Below, piece by piece: positions 5,316 through 64,000 of a stretch of 64,000 bases of DNA. This DNA comes from Balanoglossus misakiensis. Its lineage: Eukaryota > Animalia > Hemichordata. The position numbers and the translations under genes are program-made. The notes below the pieces were generated by a model. It saw only the letters and a list, made by a program, of their open reading frames with translations. It searched no databases and was not told the origin of the DNA. The first letter of the stretch is position 1. Each line of letters begins with the position of its first letter. The stretch spans positions 2,325,344 to 2,389,343 of the forward strand of contig CM082584.2 in NCBI GenBank assembly GCA_040954595.2. Reading direction: 5' to 3'.

Positions 5316-5358
5316 GCCAGGGTTCGAACCCATGATCCTCTAACCACTGGACTATGAC
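5316..5358 (-). other. Truncated tRNA-like / SINE-head fragment with Pol III A and B boxes
   Basis: Minus strand reads GTCATAGTCCAGTGGTTAGAGGATCATGGGTTCGAACCCTGGC, with A-box-like TAGTCCAGTGG and B-box GGTTCGAACCC. The anticodon arm is missing. Confidence 0.5.
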
Positions 5359-22000: not shown

Positions 22001-24648
22001 ACATATTTGGTTGGGTAATTACAGAATAATTACTTTAATTCCATGCATACCCTTCCTAAACTCAAATTAGAATATATAACTGAAATTATAATTATACACA
22101 GGTCTATGAAATGCTAAGAAAATGTAAAATCTAGGAAAGAACACCCATGGGCATTCAGCTCTTAGCAGATAACATCAATCACTTTGAAGACATGTCACTT
22201 CCCAGACTTTACTAAAAAATACTTCCAACTCTGAAGTAAAACGCATCTCCAAGTTGCATACACAATACTATAATATACTGTTAGAGATTTATAATGTTTT
22301 AAGTGAAAAAAATACAGAGATGTAAATACCCCTGCCATTTATTCAGTGACATGTAATGCTGCCATTATGCACTGATTGACTCTAGCCACTTTCCCAGTAG
22401 GAGGAAAAAGACCATATGCCGTCTTCAGCATAAAAATCTCAGTTTACTCTGGCTAATTATATTGGAGTTCTTATCAGTGTTTCGGGACGCTTAGATGATA
22501 ATCGTTGAAATGGACAACACCAACATATGACGTTAACAAGCGGGAAGAAACAAAAGTTACTCAGTTTTTGGCATTTTATTTTTATTTGCAAGACCGAGAA
22601 ATTAAAATATGACAAATTTAGAAATCAATCAGATTATACAGCATGTCCCACTTTGAATGGTGGCCATATTGGATTCTGAACTCCCTAGTAATATAAACAT
22701 ATAGTGTACTTAGTGAGTCTCAGTATAGGGTAATCAACACAATCAGACAAAACTTGGGTTACCCATTGGAATATTCCTATCAAATTTCAAAGCAATCCCA
22801 TATGCAGTTTCAGAAAAATCAGTATTTTCTCCAAAATTGTATAATATCTTACTTCAATCGCTTCAGGGAACATGCCTACCAAAGCTCAAGGCGATCTGAC
22901 ATGCAGTTTGAAAGAAAATAATTTTTGATGAAAAATTCCACAACTTTCACACACAAAACGCAAATATGTAAATTTCAAGTATTTTTTTTAAACATCTCAT
23001 TTAATTATCCCCAAGGAACAAGCCTACCAAATTTGAAAGCAATCTCACAAGCGGTTTTAGAGGAAACAATTTTTGACCAAAAATGGCAAAAATTGCTACA
23101 AAATTATAAATATGCACATTTTTCATCAACCAGGTTTTCATCAACTGGGACCACACATACAAAAGTATGCTTCCAAGCAACACGACTCTAGGAGAAAAAA
23201 TCCTTGTCGCCCTGGTCAAAAAATTGGCTTATACTAAAACATCAAATCGGTTATCTCTCAAAGCTAAAAGGGTTATCACCAAACAGATTACAATGCCTAA
23301 GTTAAAATGTTTAAGACATTTTCTTTAGTTGTGGTTTTGGTTTTATCGGTTTTCCCAATAAAAATTAGGATAATTTTTTAAGTATGCCAACGGAGAGGTG
23401 GAAATCTCACCAGAAAAGCGAAAATACACCAACCACGTTTAAACCGTAAAATTAAAAAAAAAACACCTGCAAACACCGAGGTGACTCATATAAAAACCTC
23501 AAAGAACGTATGGAATTATGTATGGAAAAATACCGTGGTTTCCTGACCTTCCGCTAAACAAAGACTATACGTATGGAACTATCGTTCCGTCCACCAGCAA
23601 AGAGACTTTCCAGAGAAAAACGTTCTACCCGTACCTTATGTCGCCATAGTGACGTGCCATTTTGCCACAACCGTTCGACAGTATGGTCGACTATTTTGAC
23701 ACTAAACATCCTGCAGCGCTGCCATCCTTTTCAATCTCACAAACTGGCCCTACGTGCGCTTAGGCAAGAGGCCTAGCAATAAAAATTTCACAAAATATAA
23801 CCCTATAAATATGATAAGACTTTCTCGATTATGACTTCCTGGTCTCCTGATTCGGGAGCCAGCGCAGCCATACCCAGAATAGCCGAGAGGCTAGCTGCAC
23901 GCCCGTAGCTCGGAATTGTTTCTGGAATTAAACCTACTTCTGTTCAACTACAAGGTGTTGTACGGATAGCTGCAAGTCACCCAATACCAGACAAAACAAT
24001 CGAGTGACGGTAACATAGCTAAATAGGCTATTGTACTAAAAGCAATGATTCGATTATGAGCCTACCGAAAAGACGTCTTGATCCCGCGGCAAGTAGAAGG
24101 AAAGTGGTCGAAACCCGGCGTCGCACACCGGAAACGGATCAATGATCACCTGTTGTTATGGTGAGTAGAACGTGTTACCCAATCACAGACCAAAGTTAGC
24201 ATTACGACACACTAATGAATATGCATACATGCTACAGCTGCATATTTTATTTCTTTAGAACGCTCTGGAACATGCTCGCATTCGAAAGAATATCTCATTT
24301 GCTTTTTGAGTGTGAGTGCCTCATTGTCTACACAATAAAATCGGGGGGGGGGGGGCACAGTGGGTAATTTCTACCACAGCCACGCATTTCAAACCAGGCA
24401 AGCGAACTGCAAACTTCCGATGTCTGAGCAACGGGTTTGATGTGCCTTGTGTTGTGAACACTTATTCGACTTCGAGGAAACAGAGCTATAATACTTCCTA
24501 ATGTGTTTCTCTTTCTGTGTCATTTTGGTCAGTCAGACCACGATACCCGAGATCGTAAACTGCTTGGGTTAGGTCGCTTAGGAGGCTGCAACTGCGGCCA
24601 CAGGTCATGTCGGTGTGTGTTGTAAACAAACATGGTAAATGCCTCCCG
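17292..24648. repeat. 7.36-kb tandem segmental duplication, copy A
   Basis: ORFs repeat at a constant +7358 offset (17380/24738, 19159/26517, 23573/30931). Junction reads gcctcccg-t-atatggcaacc at 24641-24660. Confidence 0.95.
19257..19694. mobile_element. 438-bp non-autonomous double-hairpin insertion, possibly tyrosine-recombinase (Crypton/DIRS-like) type
   Basis: Absent from sister copies of the 1.3-kb repeat (empty site cagattatat|tacaat near 15325 and 21097). A ~200-bp hairpin centred on cgaggccgcaggccgag is followed by a second inverted repeat (tataataaacctcatgct...agcatgaggtatattata). TTATAW occurs at the left flank, middle and right end. Confidence 0.75.
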
Positions 24649-24649
24649 T

Positions 24650-27600
24650 ATATGGCAACCAAAGTGACATGACCACTAATGATATTGTTGTCAAACATTG
24701 AACCGCACAGTAAATTAGAACTTGATTTGCCTTGTAGTTGTTGAAAAGATGTCAATTTTTAAGGGTTATCAGAATATCCAATATGGCCACCATTAAGAAG
24801 AAATGGGACAGGCCCAAGCGGTTAGCATGGTTCCAACAGAAAGCAAAGGCTGTTTTGTTGTGGATGCCAAGAAATGGTAAAGTAAGCCAGAGGTCACGCA
24901 AAATTGTGACACAAATTTTTGATCTTAAACTGATCAGTGTCCAACAAAAACCAGACTTGTAAGCTCCATTTGTTTACTTGAAATAGCTTATGTACAAAAT
25001 TATTGTGTTAAAGTTTAATACTTCATTAGTTGTTTCAGTCCTCCAAATTTGAAGACTGTATCTGCTGTGCATGCCAACTTATGGAAAAGTAGATCAAAGG
25101 TCATTGCCATAATTAGCAAAATATTTTGGTTATTTCCTGGCAGCAGCAGTACTCATGTGAACAAAATCATGACTGTTGTGCTTTTTAACAAGAGGCATAT
25201 CCACATAAAATAAGTTCTGGAATTACTGGATCAAAGGGCATATCCACATAAAATAAGTTCTGGAATTACTGGATCAAAGGACATGCGAGAGTCGCAAACA
25301 AATTGTTTATTCAAGTTTTATTATTGTCATTGAACCGCACAGTAAATTAGAACTTGATTTGCCTTGTAGTTGTTTTATAAGATGTCAATTTTTAAAGGTT
25401 ATACGAAAATCCAATATGGCCGCCATGAAGAAGACAATTAAAACTAAAAGCAGCATTGGAGGGACCAAAGCGGTTAGCATGGTTCCAACAGAAAGCAAAG
25501 GCTTTATCTGTTATGGATGCTGAGAAATGGTAAGTAAGCCAGAGGTCACGCAAATTTTGGCCAACAAATTTTGATATCAAACTGAGCTGTGTCCAACAGA
25601 AAACAGACTTCTAAGCTCTTTTGGTTCACTTGAAATAGCTTATGTACATAATTATTGTGTTAAAGTTTAATACTTCATTAGGTGTTCCAGCCAAAAAAAT
25701 TTGAAGACTGTATTTGCTGTTTATTCCAAGTAATGGGATAGTAGATCAAAGGTCATTGCCAAAATTATCAAAAGATTTGGGTTATGTCCTGGCAGCAAAG
25801 GTCATTGCCAAAATTATCAAAAGATTTGGGTTATGTCCTGGCAGCAGTCGTACTCATGTGAACAAAATTATGACTGTTGTGCTTTTTAACAAGAGGCATA
25901 TCCACATAAAATAAGTTCTGGAATTACTGGATCAAAGGACATGCGAGAGTCGCAAACACATTGTTTAATCAAGTTCTGTAAAAACTTGATCAAAGAACAT
26001 GTGAAAGTAGTCTAATAATTGTGATATATTCTGGTCATATGGTGACTCATATCCATAAAAAGAATTTGTGTGGTTTCAATGAGCAGGCTAGAAATAGGAA
26101 ATTTTAGTCTTTTATTGGAGATCAGAAAATCGAATTTGGCTTCAATAAGGTTTACCCAATCACAATTTACTTGAAAACTTGATTAGAAATAGATTTTTGA
26201 AATTTTTTAATGATATTTTTTCAAAAATCCAAAGCCACATGACCACTAATGATATTATTGTCAAACATTGAACTGCACAGTAAATTAGAACTTGATTGGC
26301 CCTGTAGTTTTTGAAAAAAATGTCAACTTTTAAAGGTTATCCGAAAATCCAATATGGCCGCCATGAAGAAGACAATTAAAACATTTACTAAAAGCAGCAT
26401 TTGAGGGACCAAAGCGATTAACATGGTTCCAACATAAAAATGCAAGATTCACAGAAGATTACTTCTTTCAGTTTTACAGGAGATCATCTAAACTTGTAAA
26501 AAAATCTCTCTATTTTTTGCATGGCACCATGGTAAGATATGAAAATTTGCAATGTTTGATGTTCCGTGTCTCAATCATGTTTTATCTAATTTTCACGAAA
26601 TTTCCAGATTATATTGAACACCTATTGCCTGGCCATGAGGGCCATAGCGGCCGTTTATTACACCGGAGGGGTTGTGAGTTACCAGAATCATATGCTATTT
26701 CCCGAGGCCGCAGGCCGAGGGAAATAGCGTATGATTCTGGTAACTCACAGCCACGTGGGGGTAAAAACGGCTGCTATGGCCCGAATATAGGCCAGGCTAT
26801 AGGTGTTTTATAATAAACCTCATGCTGACAGTTTTGGAAAATCATGCAATTTTCTCTTGAGGTTGGCAGACGACATCTTCAGCGGTGGCCATTGTGTCAG
26901 ACGCGACGCTGATTGACGTGACCACGTTTGTCATGTGACCGGTTTATATTTTTTCTGCTATTTCCCTAACGGTTCATAGTCGATTCTATTTTCCTATCAC
27001 GTGACGGATTCTGGCGAATCACGGCACAGTATTAGCATGAGGTATATTATAATACAATATATGTGCAGATACAGATAGTGACTTAAGTTTTTGATATCTG
27101 GATTATAATTTAAATTCCCAGGCGCTCAAATATGGTAAACCTAGCATTTTACCATTGCAAATGGGCGGCCATATTGGGTTGACATTTCATTAGATGGCAA
27201 TATTTGTTTATACACTGCAATTTGCTGAAAATCAGTTCAATCACTGTAGTAAGTGGAAATATTTAAAGTCTTGTGTATTTTAGCAATCATAAAGCTGATA
27301 TTACTACCAAAAACATTTTATACAGTTACTTCTGAACAGCAAAAATTGCCATCATTCAAGTCAAAGTCTCAGATCGGCCCTTTTGCTTGCCTGTGTCGAG
27401 TGGATATCAAAAGTGGAGAAAGTTGGATAGTTTAATTTCTACATGTTACCTGTACTATCCTTGTAGACTATTAACATTAACAAGAATTTCATATTAAATT
27501 TTGGTATGATATGCATGGAAAGACTGGCTGGCTATAAATCATGAAAATGGACGCCGTTGCACCATACAGTTTTTACTGCACACACATGTATTTTAAGCAC

Positions 27601-30600
27601 ACTGTGTCTTTCATGTATTCCACTTTTCTCCCTTCCTTGCTGGCTTTGTCTATTTCTTTTCTGACTGTGTCTTTATGAAATTACTGATTTTTTTTTGGTA
27701 ATTAAACTTCTGGCTCAAATAAATGTACTAGAGCTGGTAAGGTTTCCTGAACATTAATCCCTGTATCTTTAACGCAGGTGTGCAAGTTCATATAAAGTTC
27801 ATTGGTTAAAGGAATATTATGAGCTGATAAATTTACTAAGCTCTTCTTTCCAGTTAGAAGCTCTGCTATATTATCAACTACTCTCAATGCTACTTCAATA
27901 ATGTTGCCTGTGCAAATTGACAATCAAAATATCCATTAGTTAGACAACATATTTGGTTGGGTAATTACAGAATAATTACTTTAATTCCATGCATACTCTA
28001 CCTAAACTCAAATTAGAATATATAACTGAAATTATAATTATAAACAGGTCTATGAAATGCTAAGAAAATGTAAAATCTAGGAAAGAACACCCATGGGCAT
28101 TCAGCTCTTAGCAGATAACATCAGTCACTTTGAAGACATGTCACTTCCCAGACTTTACTAAAAAAACTTCAAACTCTGAAGTGAAACGCATCTCCAAAAA
28201 ATCCAATATGGCAACCATGAAGAAGACAATTAAAGCAACATGCTGCATTGCAGGGGCCAAAGTGGTTTGCATGGTTCCAACATAAAAATGCAAGATTCAC
28301 AGAAGATTACTTCTTTCAGTTTTACAGGAGATCATCTAATCTTGTAAAAAAAATCTCTCTATTTTTTGCATGGCACCATGGTAAAATATGAAAATTTGCA
28401 ATGTTTGATCTTCTGTGTCTCGATCATGTTTGATCTAATTTTCACGAAATTTTCAGATTATATTACAATATATGTGCAGATACAGATAGTGACTTAAGTT
28501 TTTGATATCTGGATTATAATTTAAATTCCCAGGCGCTCAAATATGGTAAACCTAGCATTTTACCATTGCAAATAGGCGGCCTTAATTGGGTTGACATTTC
28601 ATTAGATGGCAATATTTGTTTATACACTGCAATTTGCTGAAAATCAGTTCAATCACTGTAGTAAGTGGAAATATTTAAATTCTGATGTATTTTTAGCAAT
28701 CATAAAGCTGATATTACTACCAAATAAATGCTATACAGTTACTTCTGGACAGCAAAAATTGCCATCATTCAAGTCATAGTCTCAGATCGGCCCTTTTGCT
28801 TGCCTGTGTCGAGCGGATATCAAAAGTGGAGAAAGTTTGATAGTTTAATTTCAACATGTTACCTGTACTATCCTTGTAGACTATTAACATTAACAAGAAT
28901 TTCATATTAAATTTTGGTATGATATGCATGGAAAGACTGGCTGCTTATAAATCATAAAAATTGACGCCGTTGCACCATACAGTTTTTACAGCACACACAC
29001 GTATTTTAAGCAAACTGTGTCGTTCATGTATTCCACTTTTCTCCCTTCCTTGCTGGCTTTCTCTGTTTCTTTTCTGACTGTGTCTTTATGAAATTACTGA
29101 TTTTTTTTGGTAATTCAATTTCTGGCTCAAATAAATGTACTAGAGCTGGTAAGGTTTCCTGAACATTAATCCCTGTATCTTTAACGCAGGTGTGCAAGTT
29201 CATATAAAGTTCATTGGTTAAAGGAATATTATGAGCTGATAAATTTACTAAGCTCTTCTTTCCAGTTAGAAGCTCTGCTATATTATCAACTACTCTTAAT
29301 GCTACTTCAATAATGTTGCCTGTGCAAATTGACAATCAAAATATCCATTAGTTAGACAACATATTTGGTTGGGTAATTACAGAATAATTACTTTAATTCC
29401 ATGCATACCCTTCCTAAACTCAAATTAGAATATATAACTGAAATTATAATTATACACAGGTCTATGAAATGCTAAGAAAATGTAAAATCTAGGAAAGAAC
29501 ACCCATGGGCATTCAGCTCTTAGCAGATAACATCAATCACTTTGAAGACATGTCACTTCCCAGACTTTACTAAAAAATACTTCCAACTCTGAAGTAAAAC
29601 GCATCTCCAAGTTGCATACACAATACTATAATATACTGTTAGAGATTTATAATGTTTTAAGTGAAAAAAATACAGAGATGTAAATACCCCTGCCATTTAT
29701 TCAGTGACATGTAATGCTGCCATTATGCACTGATTGACTCTAGCCACTTTCCCAGTAGGAGGAAAAAGACCATATGCCGTCTTCAGCATAAAAATCTCAG
29801 TTTACTCTGGCTAATTATATTGGAGTTCTTATCAGTGTTTCGGGACGCTTAGATGATAATCGTTGAAATGGACAACACCAACATATGACGTTAACAAGCG
29901 GGAAGAAACAAAAGTTACTCAGTTTTTGGCATTTTATTTTTATTTGCAAGACCGAGAAATTAAAATATGACAAATTTAGAAATCAATCAGATTATACAGC
30001 ATGTCCCACTTTGAATGGTGGCCATATTGGATTCTGAACTCCCTAGTAATATAAACATATAGTGTACTTAGTGAGTCTCAGTATAGGGTAATCAACACAA
30101 TCAGACAAAACTTGGGTTACCCATTGGAATATTCCTATCAAATTTCAAAGCAATCCCATATGCAGTTTCAGAAAAATCAGTATTTTCTCCAAAATTGTAT
30201 AATATCTTACTTCAATCGCTTCAGGGAACATGCCTACCAAAGCTCAAGGCGATCTGACATGCAGTTTGAAAGAAAATAATTTTTGATGAAAAATTCCACA
30301 ACTTTCACACACAAAACGCAAATATGTAAATTTCAAGTATTTTTTTTAAACATCTCATTTAATTATCCCCAAGGAACAAGCCTACCAAATTTGAAAGCAA
30401 TCTCACAAGCGGTTTTAGAGGAAACAATTTTTGACCAAAAATGGCAAAAATTGCTACAAAATTATAAATATGCACATTTTTCATCAACCAGGTTTTCATC
30501 AACTGGGACCACACATACAAAAGTATGCTTCCAAGCAACACGACTCTAGGAGAAAAAATCCTTGTCGCCCTGGTCAAAAAATTGGCTTATACTAAAACAT

Positions 30601-37577: not shown

Positions 37578-38339
37578 TACATCCTAAGTATCTTTTTTTC
37601 ACACCAGAAGACAATGCATAGTTGCTTTGTGTATGGCAGACTTTGTATTACGATAGACACTGACAACCAGTTACATCTGTCTCGCATACAAATATGGTCA
37701 TATTGAAATAAGGTATTACGATGGAAACAAAGTAAAGCTAATGCAAGAATTAGTACAGAACAAGTCTATTCTGTTACTACACTGGAATAACCATTCTGTG
37801 TTATTTGATCTGTTTAATTAAAGTCTACAGTCTCGTGTTCATTATAGTCAGTTTCCTGTATGAATTTATTGATTCAGAATATCAAAAAGACTCATGTCAT
37901 CAGCCAGCAGACTACTACTTGATTGTTGCTGTGTTTGTTGCATGCTGGGTGCCAAGCCCATCTGAGGTACCTGTGGTCGCGGCCGTGGCTGTTGTCCTAG
38001 TAACAGCTGTTGTTGTTGTTGTGATTGCTGTTGTTGTAAGAACTGCTGTTGTTGTTGCCATGTTTGTTGTGTTGCTGCTGGTTGTTGTTGTTGTGGTGGT
38101 GGTGGTGGAATGGTTGCTTGTGTACCGCTAGCTTGTTGTTTTTGTTGTTGCTGTTGAATGCAAACAAAATGGTTTTCTTTTTAAAGTCACTTCACAGAAA
38201 GCGGCAATGTATCAGGAGACAGCTCTCTTTAACGTTCTTCACATTTGTCAATCAGACTGAAATTTAGGGAGGCATAAAGTAACTGTAATTTCGGGTATAG
38301 TCGTGTCGTGTCTACTATTTGATGGTTAATTTCAGGACC

Positions 38340-47361: not shown

Positions 47362-50002
47362 AGAGCATATCTTGCCTTTTTAAATCTTATCAGAAGGTTA
47401 AAAAATGATTGAAAGAAATCTAATATTTACCAAAAGTGACAATATTTTTCGGGTATCGATTTCCATAATATTTGTTTTGTTCTCATAAAATAGACCAGCT
47501 TTAGCGATGCTCACAGGTGTCATACGGTGTTTTCGTGCTTTTCTGTGTAATACCACAATGGGAAAAAGAGGTGGTTGCCGTGGTTGCAGCAACACATTAC
47601 CTAGACGGAAGTCACCCATGTGAATTCCCCGAAAACCAATGAAAGTCTATGCCACGATCATCGATATTGTACGGTGGATATGAAGCCATCCGGCGGCGGC
47701 GGCCGTAACTGTCAATGCATGACCGTTGAACGATAATCGGCCAGGTTTGAATCACGAGAAGACAATCCACACCCTTACAGGAAAATAGAAGCCTGTCAGT
47801 AGGAGAGGTCGACCAGTGATCAATATTCAATTCAGAGCACAACTGATCGTTTATACCCGATATTGGTGTTCATTCAGTGTTCCAGCGACCGCGATTACAC
47901 AGTAGAAGGTGAACTGGCAGGAGGCGTAAACACAATTTTGCGCTGGCCGACATCAAGATTGCTTATAATTATTCACTCTTTCGTCTGGCTACCCGGTACC
48001 CAGGGACCGCAAACTTCGATAATTAAGGTTGACAGCAATCAATGTGAAAACTTGAACGTTCAAAATATTACTGTTACTATTTCACATTTTTTTCAGTCAT
48101 ACCTTTGTATGGCTTCGGGCTGAATGGTCGCCATCTTTCTTTTCTAATTTCTTTGTTTACAAGTTTTACGTCGCACTATGTCCGACTCATCGGTTCCAAA
48201 ACACACTGTACAAATTTTGAAACAAAATGTGTTGAATAAATTTTGCCGCGTGTGAGTGAAAACCGTTTCCAAACTTGGATATTCGTGTGTATCAATGAAA
48301 ATGTTTCATGCTTTGTGAGCGTGAGTGGGTCGGCCCGGCATGATCGCCTGTTGCTGTTGGTTGTATGGTTTCATTTTGTTATAATGCAGTATGAAGCATG
48401 TGAAGGAACTTTCATGATTACAGCGACAAGTCATAAATGTTTCTGTTTGTCATCACCAAAAAGGCATATAGCTTACATGTAATTCAGAAGACAGAATTTT
48501 AGTGCTGGCATGGTACATATACATCGCGGCGCGATATGTGTCATCGCTGCTGACTGCGTGTACACGCATCGGCGCTGATGGAGTTCCCTTGTAATAACAC
48601 GCGCGTATTTTGTCTGTTGAGGCAGTGATCGAAAATCGCCAAAAGACCACGATATATCAGTTGTCAATAAGTTGACATTGTCCAAGATAAGTAGATTGAG
48701 ACCCAACACTCTAGTCCTAAACCTCTGGGCAATATTCCACGGTTTAAGATGGGTCCCCCGGATCTTTTTGCCCGTTGCTATGGGCCTTTGCAGGACATTA
48801 CACCCCGATTTGGACTAAGCCGTTTTCAGAGTCTAACAAGGGGCTGGTAACTAGTTGAAAATCTGCACGATTGTGAGCGCGCGCCCCCTGACGCCATTGA
48901 TATGCAAATTAGCTAGGTCAAATTTCAAAAGCCTAAGGCTTTTTATTCCGTGACCTCAAAAACGAACTTGATACGTATTCATTAGTTGCTTGAACCAGGG
49001 AAGATCGTGACGGATTTTGTTTTCGAATATTATCGTTGTATCCTACGATTTCAGCATACCCGTACCACAGCGGAAAAAGTCATCGATTTTAGGTGTTTTT
49101 GGACGCACTCTTCCACCGGTATCGCTTCTTAGCACGACGAAAACCGAAAAAACGATCCGTCACACTGTGAGGAAGTGCGTTCTCAACAAGCAGGTCAAAT
49201 TTGACTGGCGTACGTGGCCTATGAAAAAAGCCTTAGGGATTTTCGTGAACGGTACAAAATCTCTGTGTACAAAACATTGGATTTTTAGCGTTCGATCCAG
49301 TTACTGTGGTCACAGGACGCGCATGCTATCGCTGACCGCTGCTTTACCGTATTAGCGTGGCGGCCTATGGCCGGGCGGTAGCTGCCGTAAACATACTCGG
49401 ACAGGGGGTGTGTACACAATCGTGTGTATTTTTAACTAGTCACAAGCCCCTTGTCGGACGTTCATAACGGTTTCGATCAAAATTGAGTGTAGTGTCCTAT
49501 AAAGGCCCATAGAAACGAGCAAAAAGATACGGGGGACCCATCTTAATCGAGGCAGCAATCATTGTATGTGTAAGGTGCCTATACACATCCGCTGCCATTG
49601 CATGTTGTGTACTGCTTGCAATGCGTAGCCGTAGCCTAACCGGGCCGAGTAGTGTTATTTTTTTCATAATCGCATCTCCCCTAGATGAAAAGGTATATAT
49701 GTACATTTATTTTGAATGGAACGGGGGATCCAGAGGCTGACCCAGCAAAGCTGTTTAGATCACAGACATGTATGATTGCAATTCAACCACTGTAATGTAC
49801 AGTCTTGCAAACGTAAATGGGTTCCTCTTGTGACGTCACAGAAATGGGCGTGGCCCAAACAGAAGTTTTTTCTCAGGCCCTGAACATTTTTAAATTTAAC
49901 ATTTATTTATCCATATGAAATAAGTAAAAGGACACCAGCATTTAACACACAAGCCCAATTATTATTTATCCTCAAAGTGTGTTTCGAGCTAAGATATACT
50001 CT
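47362..50002. mobile_element. Non-autonomous Kolobok-like DNA transposon (2.64 kb)
   Basis: TTAA|AGAGCATATCTT ... AAGATATACTCT|TTAA: 12-bp TIR (11/12), purine-purine termini and a TTAA TSD. No transposase ORF seen. Confidence 0.75.
48748..49542. mobile_element. Kolobok-like MITE (795 bp) nested inside the previous element
   Basis: TTAA|GATGGGTCCCCCG... and ...CGGGGGACCCATC|TTAA. The imperfect TIR extends ~125 bp, to cacgattgtg / cacaatcgtg. Confidence 0.88.
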
Positions 50003-51037: not shown

Positions 51038-51226
51038 GAAGTGTCCCTTACGAAAAAGGTTCTATAGAACTCTATAGACCTCTATAGAAACGTGTAGAAA
51101 TCAATAGAAAATCAATAGAAATTTATTTTCTATAGAATTCTACAGGTGACTTCTATTAATTTTCAACAGAAAATCAATAGAATATTATTTTCTATAGAAT
51201 TATACAGATGATTTCCATTAAACTAG

Positions 51227-52650
51227 CCGTCAATAGATTTTCTATTGAAAATATTACCTAGCATGAAATAAGTGAAAAATGATTTTTAATAGGTTTTAAC
51301 ATGATTATCATACAATGACAAAGCAATTTGTAAGATTTGCCCCCATTACACATATTTCACTGTGAACAAAGTATATTTTAACAGAAATCCACAGACTCTA
51401 TTGAATTCTATTGATGTCAATAGATTTTCTATTGAAAAATATTGTCAACCTTGAAATGGTTGAAAGAAATATTTTTCCCTAGTTTTTAGCAAATGTGTGC
51501 ACATAATCATCACAAAATGAAAAGGAATTTGTCAGGTTTGCCCCAACTACATACATTTCACTGTGAACAGTGTATTTTAACAAAAATCCACTGTCTCTAT
51601 TGAATTCTATTGCCGTCAATAGATTTTCTATTGAAAAATATTGCCAACCATGAAATAGATGAAAGAAACATTTTCCCCTAGTTTTTAGCAAATGTGTGCA
51701 CATAATCAACACAAAATGACAAATGAATTTGTCAGGTTTGGCCCAACTACATATATTTCACTGTGAACAGTGTATTTTAACAAAAATCCACTGACTCTAT
51801 TGAATTCTATTGCCGTCAATAGATTTTCTATTGAAAAATATTGTCAACCTTGAAATGGTTGAAAGAAATATTTTTCCCTAGTTTTTAGCAAATGTGTGCA
51901 CATAATCATCACAAAATGACAAAGGAATTTGTCAGGTTTGCCCCAACTACATACATTTCACTGTGAACAGTGTATTTTAACAAAAGCCACTGTCTCTATT
52001 GAATTCTATTGCCGTCAATAGATTTTCTATTGAAAAATATTGCCAACCATGAAATAGGTGAAAGAAACATTTTCCCCTAGTTTTTAGCAAATGTGTGCAC
52101 ATAATCATCACAAAACGACAAATGAATTTGTCAGGTTTGGCCCAACTACATATATTTCACTGTGAACAGTGTATTTTAACAAAAATCCACTGTCTCTATT
52201 GAATTCTATTGCCGTCAATAGATTTTCTATTGAAAAATATTGCCAACCATGAAATAGGTGAAAGAAACATTTTCCCCTAGTTTTTAGCAAATGTGTGCAC
52301 ATAATCAACACAAAACGACAAATGAATTTGTCAGGTTTGGCCCAACTACATATATTTCACTGTGAACAGTGTATTTTAACAAAAATCCACTGACTCTATT
52401 GAATTCTATTGCCGTCAATAGATTTTCTATTGAAAAATATTGCCAACCATGAAATAGGTGAAAGAAACATTTTCCCCTAGTTTTTAGCAAATGTGTGCAC
52501 ATAATCATCACAAAATGACAAAGAGTTTGTCAGGTTTGCCCCAACTACATACATTTCACTGTGAACAGTGTATTTTAACAAAAATCCACTGTCTCTATTG
52601 AATTCTATTGCCGTCAATAGATTTTCTATTGAAAAATATTGCCAACCATG
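51227..52650. repeat. Left subterminal ~200-bp tandem repeat (about 7 copies)
   Basis: The anchor gtttttagcaaatgtgtgc occurs at 51482, 51681, 51881, 52080, 52280 and 52480. Each unit has the cluster ctctattgaattctattgccgtcaatagattttctattga. Confidence 0.95.
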
Positions 52651-52976
52651 ACCGGACGCTAAGGATTTTGATTTAGGCGAAGATTGTATCGTTTGGCCAT
52701 GGAAAGTAACCAGTTCACCCCGAGCAAACAGATACCAGTATACATTCAGCTCAAACACACAGCTATTCATTCTTAATCATTCTATTTTATATTGTGAATG
52801 AATACTTGACAAATATGTCTCTGTAAATAATTCATTTATTACAATTTCAAAATGATATCTGCAAAACACTGGTACATATACAAATCTGTATATAAATACA
52901 AATCAGAAGAAACGGACTCTCAACTACAGTACTGGGGTAAGTGTTTGCTACCTACAGACTTTTTTTGCAGCCCTTA

Positions 52977-55900
52977 TCAGTCCCTTTCAAAAGGGTTGGG
53001 GAGTGGTGAGAGGTAAATTGACTCACCCATTCCAAGAACTACACATTTACGTCTCAAAAACGACGGTCGCACAGCAATTCTTTCATGTGAAATCTCACGC
53101 AGTGGTTTTACATATGTACACTGTATGCCAATTTCATTGTCAACAAACATTGACCTCCCACTTAAACACCTACTGGCTATCAGGAATGATCTTTCATTAC
53201 AGTGACAATCACCTTGGCATATGCAACCTGGCCTAAGAATTACAAGGTTTCTTATTACATACAATTGCTCATCTTGTCCCTGAAAATAATGGTTCGTTCT
53301 CTTTGCTGCCCTAGTGTAGCTACTTGTTGTGAACACAGCACCTGATATAGTGAATCTCTTGTAATATTTGGCATTCACATTCAAGATAGGGTGGCCCACA
53401 GCCTCCTCTATAGCTAACCTGTCTGTCAATCTTATTTCCCGTTTGTCAGCAGCTCCCATGGCCACAACCCCTGAGCAGCTATGAAAGTCCCTCTTTAAAT
53501 GCACAATTCCTCTAGACAATTTGTCAAATAGTGGCCTCAGATCACTATCCTGTGGTATAATTGTGGATCTTCTTGATAAATCTCTCCACAGACAGAATGT
53601 GTTTGATATCTGTGAAGGCACACTTTGAGTACCCTGAAATAGCTTCATGATTACACCATTGTGACTTTCAAACACAAAGGAAGATGTAGCCCAGAGAGGT
53701 GCCCATTCCCTAACACTACTAGACAAATGCAGTAGAATGTGCATATTAAATGACATCACTTCTTTCCCATAAAGGCATTCAGTTTGAGTCACAAACTTTC
53801 TGATTGCCTGCTCTGCCAGATCAACAGAGCGGGCTGTTACTTTTTCCTGAAGTAACGTGTGGATTCCAAAAACCAGCAAAAACCAATGGTTCAGAAAAAC
53901 TGCAGGTAACACACCTCTCAGAACAATTAAAGAATAGAAAAGGAGAAATGCCCTCCACTCCGAACCTTTCCAATACTTTCTGTAATCTAACGATCGTGGT
54001 GTCCTGGTTATTTCATTTGGAGGAAACTGCTGCATCAAACGGGAATTAATTACACGTTGTTTAGCAGGGGCTAAGTACCAGGGTTTCTGCTTGTTTTCAC
54101 TGTCAAGCCAAAGTGAGGTGATTTGCCTGACAACCCCTAATAAAACACAATGCAAAAAATCAGGAACAAACCCTTTCACAATGTCGAAATTGGGAAGCAA
54201 CATACACACACTGGGTCCCTTCACACCCAATATTGGTCGGTCTCTTTCAACCGCCTGCCTACAACAATCCTCATACTGATCGTTATTCCTCAACTCAGGA
54301 TGAGGAAGATCCTGTACACTATATACACGTGCATGACCATTGCCCTTTGCTATGTATTCCCCTGGGTGCAGGCACCAGTCACATCCATACTGCCCATTAT
54401 ACTGTTTGCAATTGCGCATCAAAGGCCTGGCAGCTGAATCAGAAGAACACAATAACACATGGACACATGTTGTGATTATCTCACCAGAACTTTGATTTCT
54501 CCAGGTAAAACCATCATTACCCAATTTCACACATTCTTCAACAAATGGTGCCAAAAAACAATCCATCTGTGGTTTGGATTGACCAAACCATAGGCCAGGC
54601 ATGAGAATATTTTGTTTTTGACATTTTGGAGTCAGTTCTGTCACTACACACTGAATGGGCCATATTGAGAAACCAGAGGACTTAAAGGCAGGGACCCCAT
54701 CACAATTCCAGAGAAGGGTTAAGTCATTATCTCTTATGATACCATTTTCAAGGAGATCTTGATAAATGGAGCCATCCAATAAATTTGAAACTGACAATTC
54801 ACTATTAATATTCTGATTTTCTAATAAATCTACAAGTTGGTCCTTGATTGGCATTACAATGAAAAAATTGTTATTTGCTACAGATATTTGCTCACTGAAA
54901 GGCTCATTACAGCTACCACAAGTGGTGTCAGTTTGAATTTCGCCCTCGGCACCAAGATATGCCATACAACTACAGCAATAGAAGTGCTTCTTACACGACA
55001 CAGCTGTCTCAGCAAAACAGTTCTTAAAAAAGTATGGTGTTGCTGGTACAGTTTCTGGTGCTATCAGGTTAATGACGTGCAACAAGTCTTTGAGAGCATC
55101 TTTTGTAAGTCGGTGTCTGAGGACAAAAGCCTGGAGAAGTAGACAAAGCTGTTCTGTTGTGACATTCATCTCTCCAGTTCCTTCTTCAGCTCCCTGAGAA
55201 TTAGAAAAATAGTAGTACATTTAGAAAAATAGGACAACCAGAAATAACATGAACAATGCAATGGTCACACTCACAGGACTGACACATTTAATTGTGATTT
55301 GACATTTGTGAAAACAGGTTCTGATCTCTTATGCATTGATCACCAGATTTTGAAAACAGGGGTCATGCTCTAAATAATAGGCCTCCTTGAGAATTAAAAT
55401 AAATGCATTCACAACCATAGAGACACTAGCTTTCATACTTGTATTTTATAATAACGATGTGTATTAAGTTGCATTAACATATAAAACAGATTGATTAGTG
55501 GAATACTAAACGATGTTGTAATAGCTAAACAAATAAAAAAAATTTAAATTTCCGATGATCAAAAGTTGGTCACATTGCTAAAAGAATAGAGACATTTTGG
55601 TGTGTATCACTGTCATGTTTCTGTCAAGGAATCAATGTGTATATTGCACCATGTCCACTTTTTCAAGTTGTAAATGCACACCCTTCAGTAAGTACACTTA
55701 CTTTGAAAGTAAATCATCAAAATAATGTAAAAAGTCATAGATCATAAGTGATTAAGGTAAGTTACCGCACAAAATTCAAATTGGCAACCATAAATTTTTT
55801 AAAGTCAAAAGCAGAACCTACCAATTCATCACCACTTTCTCCTGTGCCCGTCCCATTAGTGTTTTCGTTTGATATGCGTGTGTGTATAATTTCTTCACTT

Positions 55901-56871
55901 TCTTCAATCTCTCCACTTCCGCCACTCAGTAAGTTGACATGTGACGTTTCCTGAGCTGGTACTTGGTCATCTATGATGAATGATGTCTGATCATCTGATG
56001 TTTCGTCGGCTGATAAATAGTCATCTGTGTCTGGTTCTGTAGTGCTGTATTCATCAATGTCTGTATCTCTGTGAGAGAAAGTTAGTCCACTTCGATAACT
56101 GTCATGAGAGGCGTTACCATCATATAAATATTCATCATTGCCACTTTCAGATTGGTAGTCACTATTTACAGAACAACTGTCAGTGTCGATGGCGATATCA
56201 TCAGTCTGAAAGATATGAATAGAATGTGGTTAAGATATGTATTTCAGTATAGCAGGACTACATAATGCATATTACATCATTTGATTCTAAATCTCAGAGG
56301 AAAGTGCTAATGCTTTAATAGTTCTTATAAAGAAAAGTAGGCTGGTGTCAGTAATGACCTGTTTTTTTTTTTTTTTTTTCCCTAAATATTCGTAGTACTA
56401 AATTATTTTTCAATTAAAAAATACTGCAGCGGCATAAATGCTGCTATATTTAGACAAAGAGTTGGAGATGTACAAGCTAGCCTTTTGGACTTTAATAAAA
56501 CCAAAAACAACAGAAATAAAATGCATACACTACCTATGACACCCTATAATTATAACAATCACCGAGAAATGACAGACAATGCCAGTTTTCGCCCGGCGCT
56601 TGCTGCAGTTCCGTAGCCAGCAACTTTCCTCGATGTGTGTGTTACGGAAGGGGCACCTTTCCGTAACACACACATCGAGGAATGTTGCAGGCTACGGAAC
56701 TGCAGCTGCAGCAAGCGCGGCGCATACTTCAGGCCGTGGTAAAAAAAGAGCTACACTTACCTCTAAACCATGTTTATCGCGAATTCGCCATCTAAACAAG
56801 GTTCTCTTTGGAATACTGACTTCGGTATCATTTAGGTAACGCTTGTATGGACCGCGCACGACCCTCGACAT
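52977..56871 (-). CDS. CACTA/EnSpm (TnpD-like) DDE transposase, ~903 aa, 3 exons
   Basis: Exons 56761-56871 (MSRVVRGPYKRYLNDTEVSIPKRTLFRWRIRDKHGLE), 55822-56205 (acidic linker) and 52977-55193; both introns are phase 0, GT-AG. CMC motifs: HFYCCSC...CGSC, LLWNCDGVPAFKSS..SIWP, CSSDSAAR..NCKQYNGQYGCDWC, DFLHCVLLG, WKGSEW, FNMHILLHL, SSFVFES. A minus-strand AATAAA lies at 52835-52840. Confidence 0.93.
56596..56718. repeat. Near-perfect ~55-bp-arm hairpin in transposase intron 1
   Basis: gcgcttgctgcagttccgtagccagcaactttcctcgatgtgtgtgttacggaa, short loop, ttccgtaacacacacatcgaggaatgttgcaggctacggaactgcag(ctgcag)caagcgc. Confidence 0.9.
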
Positions 56872-57310
56872 GTCTCTTCCGCGACGAACAGCGATCTGAT
56901 GATCTAGTGAATCAGCTGTGCAAGCGTCGGTGACTGCGGTGCATGCTGGGTGATAGATATGGCATCATCTCAAGTACAAATTTTAACGTTCCGATCGATC
57001 TGTGGTACTACTTTAAGGTGAATTTTGGCGTTTCAAAATAAAGTGAATGATATCTTAACGTGTTTTTTTTTCAAATAACATCTCAGCTCTAAGAAATGCT
57101 GTATTTTAAAATCACATGACCTACTGCATGACCTTTGACTCTTCTCATAAACGCCCGCATTTCTTACCCAGCATGCATCGAGGTAAATAAATAGTCGGCG
57201 AACTCCTGACCTTTTACAGCTGATTCAGTAACCACCGAAGACACACTACGCGTCACTCGCTACCAGCTCCGCTTAAGATTTCGCTATTTACGAACGTCGA
57301 TCTAGTCACC
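56872..57310. promoter_or_regulatory. Putative bidirectional promoter with mirrored Staf/ZNF143-type sites and CAGCTG/Inr-like motifs
   Basis: 439 bp between divergent ATGs. Minus strand: TCACCCAGCATGCACCGCA (56935-56953), then ACAGCTGATTCACT. Plus strand: TTACCCAGCATGCATCGAG (57164-57182), then ACAGCTGATTCAGT (57216-57229). Confidence 0.75.
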
Positions 57311-60300
57311 ATGAAGTACGCTTTATTTGATTTTTACGAAGAAAAGAGTGTTGAAGTTGGTGAGACGAATTGGATAGAAGATCTCGATGAAGACGACGTT
57401 ATGAGTTTTGACTTCGACGAAGATTGTGCTGTCCAGTGGTCATCAAAGAAGGCAGGAAGAGATCCGGCGAGATATGTAGCAAAAGTTATCAAGTTTAGCG
57501 GTAAGAATTGTTTGGATTTTTTCAAAACTCAAAAAAAACGTGTCAGGTAGAAACATTTCCCAATGTTGAAGACGTTCATTGTAGAAAGTTACCTTTATCT
57601 CGATCCCAGGGTCTTGGGCTCCCTTGAACCAAACACAGCTTGTTTACTTCCTGTTCATTGTTATACTATTTGCATAACAAAACGAGTTGCCAGGAAAGCC
57701 AGCAACCCCTTTGTTTTACTTTGTGACACAATTTTTTTACGTGGTTTGTGTTGTGCATTTTTGATCGTCAGCAAAAGTTTCTCATTCAGTTGTGTGTGTG
57801 TGTGTTTTTCACAACCAGGTCATAATGTTTATCTTTACAGATGACAGGCAGGAGCTGTTGCGACTAGCCAACGTCTATGTCAAAAAAGGGGTGAACACAA
57901 ACATTAAGACTCCAGAATATGGACGGGGGAAACGTGAAAAGGCACCAAAGAGAATCTACACCGACAGCGAAGATGATGAAGATGATTATGTACCGGTAAG
58001 TTGATATTTAACTACCATGTGGCTGATGCAGAATTCAATATGATTTATCTAGGTACAGATGATATTAATTTCTCGTTGTCAATATAAACACCCATTTTCA
58101 AAACTCCATGCCAAGTGTTCAGAAGTATCTCACAATAATCATTTCATTTCTTTTTTAGGAAAAAAATAACTTGAATAAAAAAAAGAAGATCAGCCAAAAG
58201 AATTCGTCTTTAAATTTGCTGAGAAAGTTAGAAAGCAAGAAGACATCTGAAGTTCGTAAAAAAATGGAGGAGGATGTCCAGTCACTTAAGTCTGTAAGTA
58301 CTGGCAATGTCATACGCCACAATTTCTGCCCCTGAAGCATATACTTTTACTTCCAAACTTGCACAAAAGCTAAAATAATGCTGACGTATAAGAGAGTGTT
58401 GTGAGCTTGTGTGGCTTAATTATGAAACAGGGATTGCACTAGTGTTTGCTCAGAATGAGTCCCTGTCACATGAAATTAAAGACAGGAAATTAAAATTTTT
58501 GTATTTATGTGAGAGATGGGACCCCTCTGTGTAAAAAGTAAGAGTCCCCCTGAAAAGTTCGGGAAGCAAAATATGGGGTTAACGCAACCCCTGCAAAATG
58601 TATCTTTAAAATGTGAGCAAAGTTATGCAATTATTGAAACTAATAATATTTCCATCAAAAAGTGACTGCAGTTCAGTGCTGTTGATGGGTAAATATCACA
58701 AGCATGTTGAAATCCATGTATGAACTGTGTTGTTATTGTTGACAACTGTGATTTTTAGTCTATTTCATTAATGTTCCTCTGCATTCTAGAGTTCATTCCG
58801 TGCTTCAACACCAGTGTCCAGTGGCTCAGAAGGCTATGATGAGGACAAGCTACACCAAGAAATAAGGGAATTGAAGGAGGAAAATGCTGCACTACGCTAT
58901 TCTCTTCGAGTGTTAAAAGGTAAAAGAATATTGATACACGCATTGAATAAAGTCAGTGGATTGTTTTAGTTCTTGTATATTTTTAATGCAATGAGTAGGT
59001 TTTAGCTGAATCAAATTATTTTGTCAGTGTTTTTTTTGTTTTATTTTTAGAAATATCAAAAGTCAACAGCCAAAATATGCCACAGAATGACTGTTTTTGA
59101 AAATACTCATGAATATCACAAAAGAACATCATTTTCGGCATTTTTTTGACGAGAAATTGAAGTATCAAGGACTCCATATATGTTTTGAAATACAAAGTAA
59201 AATGTTACCATAATTAATTTATAAATGAAAAACATTTAATTTATTCACTTGTACATGATGACTAAGCTGGGCAAGCTGTAACTTACCTTTTTCAGCACCA
59301 ATGAAAGCCTTCATTTGTGACCAGCTTTCTCAAACTATGTGTTTTGTAGTTACTTGACAATAGTTTGATAATGCTGGTCAGTATGTAAACATCTCAGTTC
59401 ACCACAATTAAAATAATTTTGTTTATGGATGATGGTCCACTGTCTTATTGGTTAACAATATTTTTTTGCCAGGATTGTCTCTTTTTTATTCCTTTTCCTA
59501 TGAACTATTGGAGTTAAATCAATGAACATATGTCCTATACCTCTATTTTCTAATCTTTTCAAATGGTATAGAGTTACCTGGCCTGCTTGGACAAATTGCT
59601 GATGTAAAAAGAACATTTGGTGTAAAGACTGGTGCACCTGCAGTCTCAAAGACAAATAAATCCAGTGGAACACATGATGCCCAATTGAACAGTGAAGAGG
59701 TAACTGTTGACATCTATTTCAATTTATCATGAATGTCTGATTTCAGGAATCTGCATAGACATAGTCATAGTCATTCAAATAATACTTCTGCTTCTTAGGT
59801 TCAACCATATGGCCTAAGTAAGAAAATTCTTTGTTCTGCATGTGTATGTTTTGCGAGATTTCATGAAAAAAACTTTTCTGCCTGCAAATTTTTGTATACA
59901 TGCTTTGGGAAATGTGATTGGAACACCTGCATGCTTGCAGAATGTCACATTTGAGTGCAACTTAACAGGGTGAAAAATTAGTTTCTGCTGAGATTCTTGA
60001 TAAGGTGCTTGTATTACATGGAAACTATCGAGTAAATATTAAATTTACCTGTTAAAAATTTCTGTGTTTCTGAACTTGTGCACTTACCTATCAAAATCTG
60101 AGTAGATGCAAAACAAAGAATTTAATTATTTTGGTCATAAAGTTTTTGTTTATTTATCTGCAGACCTGATGATTGCAACTCTGTTTAGAACAGATCATGG
60201 CTCTGCAACTTTACTTCCATGGAAAATGTGGTTGTATTGTTAGAGCTGTTGATTTCATAGAAAATAGAAAGTATTGTAAGAACTCTGTGATAGAGTTTTT

Positions 60301-61138
60301 ACTGTACTTTCTATTTTATCAGGTTTTCTATGACAGTAATCATATTTATTTTGTGTCTGCCTCTAGTGTTACCAATTATTTTGGTCTTTTTCAGATTTTG
60401 GTCAATGATGAGATGATAGTAACTGCCAAGCAGCTGAGCCGCGTTGACAAATCAACAGCGAAGAAAATGACGTATGATTTGATGGCAGTGGTGTTTGATA
60501 GGGAAACACTCAGGACTCATTCGTATAGTGGCAGAGTGTGCAACTCAGTCAAGGGTTCTTTACCCAAACCAGCGCTGGATGCCGACAAAATAAGAGCCAT
60601 TAAAGGTATGTAGGTATTAAGTTACTTATCATCTCCAATTATTAATTTGCTATTTTAGGTCATAGGAATACACAAAGATATATTGGCATTTTGTATATTT
60701 GGAGTGATCAGTGATGTATACCTCTTTAACATAGTGTAACCTGCTGTAGATAGGGTGCAAATTTTGCAGTGCTTTTGCAAAATCTGCTTTGGTCTGCTAA
60801 TGGAGACCTGTATGTGGAATGAGATAGGCCATCTTTAAAAAGTTGTAAAAGCGTTTAAGGGACTGCGAATCAAATATACCATTCTCTCTACCGTAACCTT
60901 GATATATTTTCATTTAGTTTGTTCTTTGTTTCTGGCGGTTAGGTTTTAGAAAAAAAAAATATAGTATGGCAAACAAAGACATCTCTAAGGTTTGAGCTTT
61001 GGTTCAGTACAATTTCATTCAGCAATTATTTTTCTCTGTTTCCCCACAGATATTGTATGCAGCAAGTTTGACTGCAAGGTTGCTGAGGTGGAGCAGTACA
61101 TTAAAATGAAAATTTACTCCGAAGCAAAACACAAGTAG
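57311..61138 (+). CDS. Transposon-encoded coiled-coil plus C-terminal BEN-domain protein, ~345 aa, 7 exons
   Basis: Exons 57311-57500, 57841-57995, 58159-58293, 58790-58919, 59572-59699, 60395-60605 and 61050-61138; all introns GT-AG, phase-consistent, with no stops. Coiled coil LHQEIRELKEENAALRYSL. BEN-like C-terminus KMTYDLMAVVFDRETLRTHSYSG...PKPALDADKIRAIKDIV...VEQYIKMKI. AATAAA at 61227. Confidence 0.85.
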
Positions 61139-61463
61139 TGTGGTTAACTGTTTCATTTATGTGTTTTGCTTATCTTTATTTATTTAAACTCTATTTTTCA
61201 TGTCACCTTTTTTATTGATTTATTGCAATAAAATGTTAAGTTTTAATTTGATGAGTATGTTGGTTTTTTCTCAAATATTTCACTGAAAGCCAGCAGAAAA
61301 CTAATTTGACTGAGGCAACACTGTATTTAGCACATTTATGTGTTAATATTAAACAACAGACTGAAAGAATATGCTGAGTATTCAGTGAAGTATTTTTTTT
61401 TATAAATATCAATCTTTTTGCCCGAATCCCACCCCTCTGTCTTTGGTAACCAGATAATACAGG

Positions 61464-62390
61464 ATCAATACACATCTATAACTCTTCTATAGAAGTTCAA
61501 TAGAAAATCAATTGAAATCTATATCTCTTCTATAGAAAATCAATACACATCTATAACTCTTTTATAGAAGTTCAATAGAAAATCAATTGAAATCTATATC
61601 TCTTCTATAGAAAATCAATAGCATATCAATGGAAATCTAGATCTCTTCTATAGAAAATCAATACACATCGATAACTCTTCTATAGAAAATCAATAGAATA
61701 TCAATTGAAATCTATATCTCTTCTATAGAAAATCAATACACATCGATAACTCTTCTATAGAAAATCAATAGAATATCAATTGAAATCTATATCTCTTCTA
61801 TAGAAAATCAATACACATCTATAACGCTTTTATAGAAGTTCAATAGAAAATCAATTGAAATCTAGATCTCTTCTATAGAAAATCAATACACATCGATAAC
61901 TCTTCTATAGAAAATCAATAGAATATCAATTGAAATCTATATCTCTTCTATAGAAAATCAATACACATCGATAACTCTTCTATAGAAAATCAATAGAATA
62001 TCAATTGAAATCTATATCTCTTCTATAGAAAATCAATACACATCTATAACTCTTTTATAGAAGTTCAATAGAAAATCAATTGAAATCTATATCTCTTCTA
62101 TAGAAAATCAATACACATCGATAACTCTTCTATAGAAAATCAATAGAATATCAATTGAAATCTATATCTCTTCTATAGAAAATCAATACACATCTATAAC
62201 TCTTCTATAGAAGTTCAATAGAAAATCAATTGAAATCTATATCTCTTCTATAGAAGTTTAATTGAAAAGTGGCCAAAAGTCCATAGAAGTCAATAGAATT
62301 TCCATAGAAATTCCATTGAGTTTCCATGGAATATCCATTGATTCTTAATAGAAATTTTTATTGAAAAGCAATAGAAGTTCTATAGAACTT
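61464..62390. repeat. Right subterminal 75-bp tandem repeat built from ~11-bp TCWATWGAA sub-units
   Basis: atcaatacacatc recurs at 61464, 61539, 61657, 61732 and 61807 (mostly a 75-bp period). Units are made of tctatagaa, tcaatagaa and tcaattgaa; degenerate ~11-mers continue into the TIR. Confidence 0.95.
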
Positions 62391-64000
62391 TTTCGTAAGG
62401 GAATCAATCAAAGTGTATTATAAAACCAGATTCCAAGAAAATACAGCTGTTCAAAGGGGCTTAGGCTTTTTTCATCTTCACTTGTCAGGTTGATATGACT
62501 ATTGTTAGTATGCAGTGTTGTATGAAATGTTTTACATCGCTTACTTACCTCACCCAACATGGCAGCCAATTGTTCTACAGTAAATCCACTGTAATTAATA
62601 CTACCTTGACTTGGCAAAGGATATGGAGGAGAGTTCAGATCAATATACAATGTTTCTATATTGGTGCGCTGTATACAAAGAGAAGATAAAACAATATTTT
62701 GTTATTGGCAGTATTGTCAGTCAGTGTTTTTTTTTAACCCTTCCACCCCAATTTCCTCTTCAGTGCTCCAACCTTAACATAGAAAACAATGCAGTTGGAC
62801 TGAACCATTGTGGTGATCAGGGTAATGTAACCAGGGTTCCCCAGTCATTTTGTTAACATTCCTTATGGTACCATAAATGCAGTCATATTAATGGTAAGAC
62901 AGGTGTTACATGGGGTTTCAAAATCACTTATTGCTCCACCCCCCCCCCCCCAACAATAGCCAAAATACTGTCAGTGTTATCCAAATTCTTATTTCACACC
63001 TGTTACAACTAACAAGGTATCTGTCGCAGTCATTTTATGCTCTTTTAGTATCCAGGATCTATTGTCGATGATATAATTAGGTATCCCAATGAATTTTTTT
63101 AACTTTCCTAAATCACATTTTTGTTAGTTTCATTGAAAAGTACATAGAATTTCATGAAAAATGATACCTCATTTTAAAAAATTGACCAAAGATTAAGCAA
63201 GATTGAGCAATATTTGACCTTTAAGGTCAACGACCTTTTCAAAATTACTAAAAAGCAGCATTTTCACAGCCTCATAGAATTTTACCAAAAATTGTAAACA
63301 TACTTCATCATGCCTTTTCCTGTAGAAAACAACCTATTAAATGTCATTTTAAAATTGAACAGCATGTTTAAAGAGGAGTTTTAGGGCAAATCACTACCAA
63401 AAAATGACAAAAACTCAATTTTGTGCAATGTGAAAATACCAAAAATTGGCCTTTCGGGCATTTTCATAGTTCTCTAAAAAAAAATGTTTCAAAGTTAGGA
63501 GTCTAAAACTGATTATAGTCTTACTAAATGTTACCCTTAAAATGCCTATTTTTTTCTGTGTACAAAAAATAACTGTAACTGGGAGAAAAATGGGCCTGAA
63601 AATGTTAATTTTGCCAATTTTACTTAGTGATAAAATGTGCTAAAATTTACCAAAAATCGCAATTTTCAAATGCGCATAAAATCAAAACCATACAAGCTAA
63701 TCACATGAAACTTTCAGGATGTATTCATTTTTATTTGTTCTTTACAAATAATGAGAAATTGTTGCTATATAAGTTTCACATTTGCTTCAATAAATTCTCT
63801 AAATTTGATTTAATCTGCTAAACTGCGCCAAAATCCACAAAAATGTGACATTGTAAGTGAAGTCGAAATGACTCGTTTTAGCAGTTTTAGCATTATTTTT
63901 ATATGGTTATATGGTAAGCTACATTTAAAAACTGGACAAACAAAAACTGAAGCTTGTGTCAAGGTATGTACTAGTTTTTTATTTTTCTTATTGTCAAGTT

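Follow-up and report, generated by a model that had tools for sequence, protein, structure and literature searches.

The window, that is, the whole 64-kb stretch of DNA that was analyzed, contains at positions 51045–62401 an EnSpm/CACTA-type (CMC) DNA transposon of 11,357 bp with CCC...GGG ends and two intact reading frames, one for a transposase and one for a BEN-domain protein. The left terminal inverted repeat (51045–51071, plus strand) is identical to the right end (62376–62401) over 14 bp, followed by a 1-nt offset. The left subterminal region (51045–52700) carries a 200-bp tandem array and 32 copies of the motif TC(A/C/T)AT(A/T/G)GA, while the right subterminal array (61441–62401), which has a 75-bp unit and includes the right terminal inverted repeat, carries 46. 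This palindromic motif is present in 78 copies at the ends of the element, in four copies in the preceding 51 kb, and in none in the promoter region that forms the middle of the element. Short terminal inverted repeats starting with CCC or CAC and arrays of a subterminal motif both mark EnSpm/CACTA elements (animal TRC, CMC), as does a target-site duplication of 2 to 3 bp. A CCC core has been described at the ends of animal CACTA (TRC) elements, and the CCC ends and the Transposase_21 domain found here fit that group (PMC1636069, partial text). The copy in the window lacks a target-site duplication; such duplications are present in 7 of 14 copies of SmTRC1 (PMC1636069, partial text) and in three of the six relatives of the element that have both ends (L064, 2 bp; L076, 2 bp; L083, 3 bp). 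L083, which also has intact CCC ends, is one of four loci (L081–L084), each from a different prokaryote MAG record, that encode EnSpm transposases of the animal type and are probably host DNA in the bins. Elsewhere in the window, we observed a tandem array of approximately 28 units of 175 to 192 bp (1–5316), a near-identical duplication at a spacing of 7358 bp (about 17500–22100 and 24900–29450), and a MITE-like structure in which 143-bp inverted arms flank a CpG-rich core of 517 bp (48744–49546).

The transposase gene lies on the minus strand and encodes a Transposase_21 protein of about 900 amino acids in three exons. Exon 1 (56761–56871, ATG at 56871) contains an N-terminal motif common to full-length relatives, exon 2 (55822–56205) is acidic and has a predicted donor chosen among alternatives, and exon 3 (52977–55193), with a predicted acceptor, carries the Transposase_21 domain. 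The match to PF02992 (E 1.5e-8) is above the curated cut-off and places the protein among EnSpm/CACTA transposases. Among 277 homologs, the nearest named one comes from Glandiceps talaboti, an acorn worm (64%), followed near 40% by proteins of sea urchins, oysters, a brachiopod, and fish. Guessing from these homologs, the DNA would come from a marine invertebrate, perhaps a hemichordate. Intron 1 contains a near-perfect hairpin of 105 nt (56602–56706; z −16.9) located 55 nt behind the donor of exon 1. It has no Rfam match at the gathering score, and part of one of its arms occurs in other contigs of sequencing run X1. This hairpin could feed small-RNA silencing or could be a tiny foldback insert.

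On the plus strand, the partner gene (57311–61138, ATG at 57311) has seven exons (57311–57500, 57841–57995, 58159–58293, 58790–58919, 59572–59699, 60395–60605, and 61050–61138) and encodes 346 amino acids with a C-terminal BEN domain (PF10523), a DNA-binding domain. One contig of sequencing run X3 bridges introns 2 to 6 at their predicted GT..AG ends; as this run has no cover between 55148 and 57676, the contig bears on these introns and not on the start sites or on intron 1, which is predicted. The exon joints of the spliced contig are absent from the genomic-contig runs. The gene is thus transcribed and spliced, since exons are joined at introns 2 to 6 in run X3 and such joints are missing from the genomic runs. 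Homolog searches with BEN exons 6 and 1, a weak test with short queries, found none, and an Atlas search gave eukaryotic clusters only, with low recognition. Within intron 5, 39-bp inverted arms 264 nt apart (59803–60144) probably represent a nested small element.

The gene models, the domains, and the spliced BEN contig confirm the head-to-head arrangement of a transposase and a BEN gene that had been proposed in the preliminary description of this DNA. The two start codons are separated by a CpG-rich intergenic region of 439 bp (56872–57310), which we infer to be a two-way promoter and which is well within the distance of 1 kb that characterizes ZNF143/Staf bidirectional promoters. The observed/expected ratio of CpG is 1.31 in the gap, against 0.52 for the window as a whole and 0.27 for transposase exon 3. 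The composition is therefore like that of the CpG islands associated with such promoters, although the GC content of the gap is only 43%. This pattern is as expected of an unmethylated island within a methylated element.

Two 12-bp words are arranged in mirror image in the gap. Word 1, a Staf-type 12-mer (ACCCAGCATGCA), is located at 57166–57177 on the plus strand and at 56940–56951 on the minus strand. Word 2 (ACAGCTGATTCA), which contains an E-box and ends in an initiator-like TCA, is located at 57216–57227 on the plus strand and at 56908–56919 on the minus strand. Each word occurs once per strand in the gap, and their order is identical ahead of ATG 57311 on the plus strand and ATG 56871 on the minus strand, just as had been claimed. 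Two or more inverted 12-bp pairs were found in none of 5000 dinucleotide shuffles, and one or more in 21 of 5000. However, the shuffles overstate the rarity of the arrangement: when the real window was cut into 1272 overlapping 439-bp tiles, 25 of them also held two or more inverted 12-mers. These tiles form five clusters, of which the promoter is one; the subterminal array and the hairpin in the intron account for two others, and two more lie near 37 kb and 46 kb. A third copy of the Staf 12-mer (37939–37950, minus strand) lies in unrelated low-complexity DNA, and the gap contains an additional 10-bp inverted pair (57090–57099 and 57157–57166) that was absent from the earlier account.

Each copy of word 1 is part of a longer Staf/ZNF143-type site. 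Using the 19-letter Staf consensus of the preliminary description, the fits stated there were reproduced: 19/19 for the site on the transposase side (56953–56935, minus strand) and 18/19 for the site on the BEN side (57164–57182, plus strand). These two score best in the 64-kb window, where no other site exceeds 17/19. The matches expected in 439 bp are 1.5e-5 at 19/19 and 5.5e-4 at 18 or better, far below what is seen, with the proviso that the pair cannot be counted as independent sites. Furthermore, both sites have CCCA at SBS positions 3–6 and C at position 12, in accordance with the conserved SBS positions, CCCR at 3–6 and C at 12 (PMC3082894, partial text). Identity with SBS2 was rejected, as no ACTACA is found upstream of either site. 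A coincidence in a CpG-rich stretch is one alternative, and it gains something from the fact that the motifs were picked after the fact and are not conserved in 20 upstream regions of relatives. Against this stand the shuffles and the expectation for the best site, which would rise to only about 0.015 even with 1000 motifs tried, and we regard chance as a very poor explanation.

Other features of the gap bear on whether it is a promoter. From the start of the Staf 12-mer to the predicted +1, the distances are 43 and 61 bp. The leaders predicted after word 2 are 36 nt on the transposase side and 83 nt on the BEN side, and neither contains an ATG; if transcription began before the Staf word, the leader would include one. 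Human start sites have their ZNF143 peak about 70 bp upstream (PMC3627581, partial text). We lean somewhat toward the reading that the gap is a compact two-way promoter, kept unmethylated, on which an activator of the ZNF143/Staf type supplied by the host acts through two mirrored modules. ZNF143 would bind both Staf-type sites and stimulate initiation some 40 to 60 bp further on in each direction, and word 2 would mark or tune each start site. An E-box plus an initiator, both low-information motifs, is one possible reading of word 2; an E-box adjoining +1 could hinder rather than help initiation. Both proteins would thereby be made together from a methylation-resistant island, a co-expression that a two-component element would need if the BEN protein were a TnpA-like binder of the subterminal repeats. 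This reading would require a ZNF143 gene in the host; ZNF143 probably occurs in invertebrates, and literature searches on its phylogenetic range turned up nothing on it; PMC3701560 makes no mention of ZNF143. One element of the original proposal, that each gene would have its own Staf site, is not required by known biology, as reporters in human cells are already active in both directions with a single SBS (PMC3082894, partial text).

It is also possible, though rather unlikely in our judgment, that the gap is a two-way promoter whose words are read by other host factors. Word 2 would then be one composite site, presumably of bHLH or bZIP/CNC-Maf-like half sites, instead of an E-box with initiator, and word 1 would serve an unrelated zinc-finger protein, possibly a repressor. 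Several observations point in this direction. First, the two copies of each word match in all 12 bp, even at positions that the Staf and initiator patterns leave free. Second, with an AT-rich TATA-like run at 57185–57194, transcription on the plus strand would be expected to start near 57216, ahead of word 2. Third, ZNF143 itself can repress depending on context (bioRxiv 10.1101/2024.05.13.594008, partial text). However, the Staf match reaches beyond the shared 12-mer on both sides, and the TATA-like run has no counterpart on the transposase side.

The symmetry of the two arms is confined to the motifs. Similarity between the upstream, spacer, and downstream segments of the arms is at the level of shuffles (p 0.97, 0.44, and 0.62, respectively), the spacers between the words measure 20 and 38 nt, and a gapped alignment of the arms contains one 19-nt gap. 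The earlier claim of motif-only symmetry with unrelated spacers was thus upheld. The two Staf-type 19-mers share 15 of their 19 letters; of the four that differ, three are at Y or R positions of the consensus and are also transitions. The 12 letters that the two sites share exactly, degenerate positions included, are more than binding alone would need. Such identity, together with the common order and orientation of the words and the alignment of the arms with a single gap, would also be left by an old inverted duplication of one promoter module, of which one or both copies are unneeded and survive by chance; inverted 12-mer pairs are, moreover, commoner in real DNA than in shuffles. Yet the flanks and spacers show only random similarity, in contrast to identity at 24 of 24 letters of the motifs, a pattern that neutral decay would not leave, which makes a mere relic improbable. 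As an origin, an inverted duplication is compatible with the ZNF143 promoter reading, and a single ancestral module may have given rise to both in this way, with only the motifs kept.

Sequencing runs X1 and X2 show seven substitutions in 861 bp. None of these is in the four 12-mers, a count without power on the conservation of the words, as a divergence of about 0.5% predicts fewer than one substitution over 48 bp. One variant, at 57180, lies inside the BEN-side 19-mer and keeps the purine. Contigs of run X1 that are about 80% alike span transposase exon 3 and not the promoter. Of the five sequencing runs, X4 and X5 (share 0.07) had no sequence over the promoter and no more than short fragments in the rest of the window, and they were set aside. 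Selection on the words is accordingly suggested from one sequence, the DNA relatives compared lying at about 44% identity or less, or at about 99%.

More distant relatives were collected with a transposase alignment (26 of 121 sequences), which gave the best 80 of 256 metagenome loci and four MAG-record loci at 27 to 48% identity. Twenty upstream regions were compared, after L015 (a duplicate of L009) and L042 (a hit without a start) had been removed and with two regions from L037; L010, L014, L067, and L080 were left out as duplicates. Among 66 candidate stretches of viral contigs, no relatives were found. The first exon of the BEN partner was detected upstream on the opposite strand at 15 loci (E <0.001) and more weakly at three others with iterated profiles, whose E-values are inflated by the addition of hits to the profile. 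At 10 loci, a BEN-like exon is found further upstream on the partner's strand. The gaps between head-to-head first exons are 318 bp in L002, about 350 bp in L059, 376 bp in L053, 382 bp in L009, 386 bp in L043, and 406 bp in L062; that of L037 is about 1.9 kb. The six loci with short gaps are independent and distant relatives of the element in the window, and the divergent two-gene layout with a short gap is therefore kept in six relatives at 318 to 406 bp. In 19 of the 20 regions from relatives, the upstream DNA has a higher CpG observed/expected ratio than the body of the transposase gene. Together, the six short gaps and this contrast indicate that a short, divergent, CpG-rich gap is a trait of the family.

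The words themselves do not follow this trait. A perfect Staf core is present in none of the 20 upstream regions of relatives, where the best scores are 13 to 16 of 19 and within those of shuffles (the lowest 2/60), and upstream Staf scores stay below 17 throughout the best 80 of 256 metagenome loci. Both words together are likewise present in none of the 20 regions. The only near-matches are single ones: L009 has word 1 at 11/12, in DNA rich in CAG, and L062 has word 2 at 10/12. Conservation of the motifs in diverged family members, which the preliminary description had proposed as a check, fails at 31 to 44% transposase identity. Because the relatives compared are this distant, the result lowers only the claim for the family as a whole. 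Probably, then, the layout belongs to the whole family, whereas the words adapt it to this particular host and are not a signal of the family.

Other elements recur in the upstream regions of the relatives. CGTTAC or its reverse is found in 6 of 13 partner-anchored regions, with 12 copies compared to 1.5 expected; seven of the eight forward copies lie in the transposase half and all four reverse copies in the BEN half (Fisher p 0.01), figures to be read with the knowledge that the motif was chosen after the fact, that tandem copies are non-independent, and that L043, L048, and L053 are one subfamily. In the gaps of L043, L048, L053, L002, L037, and L076, there is thus a hint of CGTTAC pointing toward each gene. 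Words that we take to be YY1-like occur at or near the start codons in 5 of 20 regions. Long inverted pairs upstream in L009/L015 (CAG runs), L042, L056, and L060 are of another kind and give no support for the words.

Subterminal palindromes, on the other hand, are found throughout the family, and the top 8-mer of the window is common to L001–L004 and L059. Their cores differ by subfamily (CTATAG, CCATGG, CATATG, and CTGCAG). The promoter words could in principle be operators for the BEN protein or the transposase of the element itself, in an autoregulation like that of maize TnpA, which regulates the Spm promoter (PMC1636069, partial text). The presence of a short palindrome in word 1 would suit such a role, as would the DNA-binding nature of the BEN domain. 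However, the words and the subterminal motif never overlap in the window, the motif being absent from the promoter and the words from the arrays. Furthermore, L002 and L059 share the subterminal 8-mer of the window and have a readable gap, yet lack both words. Autoregulation by these words is therefore quite improbable. As the subterminal signal travels with the element and the words do not, it is more likely that host factors serve the promoter words and that an element-encoded binder, perhaps the BEN protein, serves the ends.

Compared to human ZNF143/Staf bidirectional promoters, the gap shows the same head-to-head genes less than 1 kb apart, CpG richness, and SBS1-type sites (CCCR at 3–6, C at 12) tens of bases before the predicted start (PMC3082894; PMC3627581; both partial text). 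It differs in its location inside an autonomous invertebrate-type transposon, its GC content of 43%, the lack of an ACTACA extension, and the strict mirror layout of two sites with the same second word after each. Like the animal CACTA/EnSpm ("TRC") element SmTRC1, the element has CCC ends, Transposase_21, introns, and a second product without a transposase domain (PMC1636069, partial text); in the present case, this product comes from a separate divergent BEN gene instead of a splice form, and the copy is without a target-site duplication. Maize En/Spm also has two proteins (TnpD and TnpA) and subterminal motif arrays at both ends, but makes both proteins from one transcript, whereas co-expression here would use a shared divergent promoter (PMC1636069, partial text).

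Maize TnpA binds the subterminal repeats. ZNF143 sites have been tied to mobile or transposon-derived DNA before, in MLT1J retroelements (PMC3627581, partial text) and in the ZFP143-dependent NWC/RAG-2 promoter (PMC3439442, partial text). However, MLT1J is a dead LTR family with SBS2 sites and NWC/RAG-2 is a host promoter beside a domesticated gene, and neither controls a pair of genes within an element that is intact. The "Blurry" promoters of Tc1/mariner elements address the same question of how DNA transposons are transcribed across hosts, but are AT-rich with weak motifs, in contrast to the sharp, high-information, host-type motifs found here (PMC6446368, partial text). Literature searches on BEN with EnSpm/CACTA, on ZNF143 bidirectional promoters in transposons, and on head-to-head transposon promoters, which did not extend to Repbase reports and most subscription papers, turned up no account of this promoter, and the part of PMC5704228 that was available has nothing on BEN-bearing transposons. 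Two-way promoters that use ZNF143 are already known, as is the occurrence of ZNF143 sites in mobile DNA; the proposed mirrored promoter, seen in one sequence, is new.

Beyond maize Spm and Tc1/mariner, the transcription of DNA transposons, their unmethylated state, and the co-expression of two proteins are thinly known. If the ZNF143 reading is true, a sharp ZNF143-type two-way promoter in an intact element is the opposite of the "blurry" strategy and would suggest mimicry of housekeeping CpG promoters. As a 439-bp dual-gene promoter, it is testable by a single reporter experiment. The subfamily series of subterminal palindromes, in turn, is a natural set for the study of BEN-domain specificity. 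More tentatively, and with more doubt than confidence, the gaps of the relatives suggest that two-gene EnSpm/BEN transposons may keep a divergent promoter of 320 to 440 bp across animals that is rebuilt in each lineage, in mirror image, from the housekeeping vocabulary of the host, with ZNF143 and the E-box word used here and CGTTAC elsewhere. If this were true, the promoter would act as the module through which a widely transferred element adapts to its hosts, and it would represent a minimal two-way promoter that occurs naturally in marine invertebrates.
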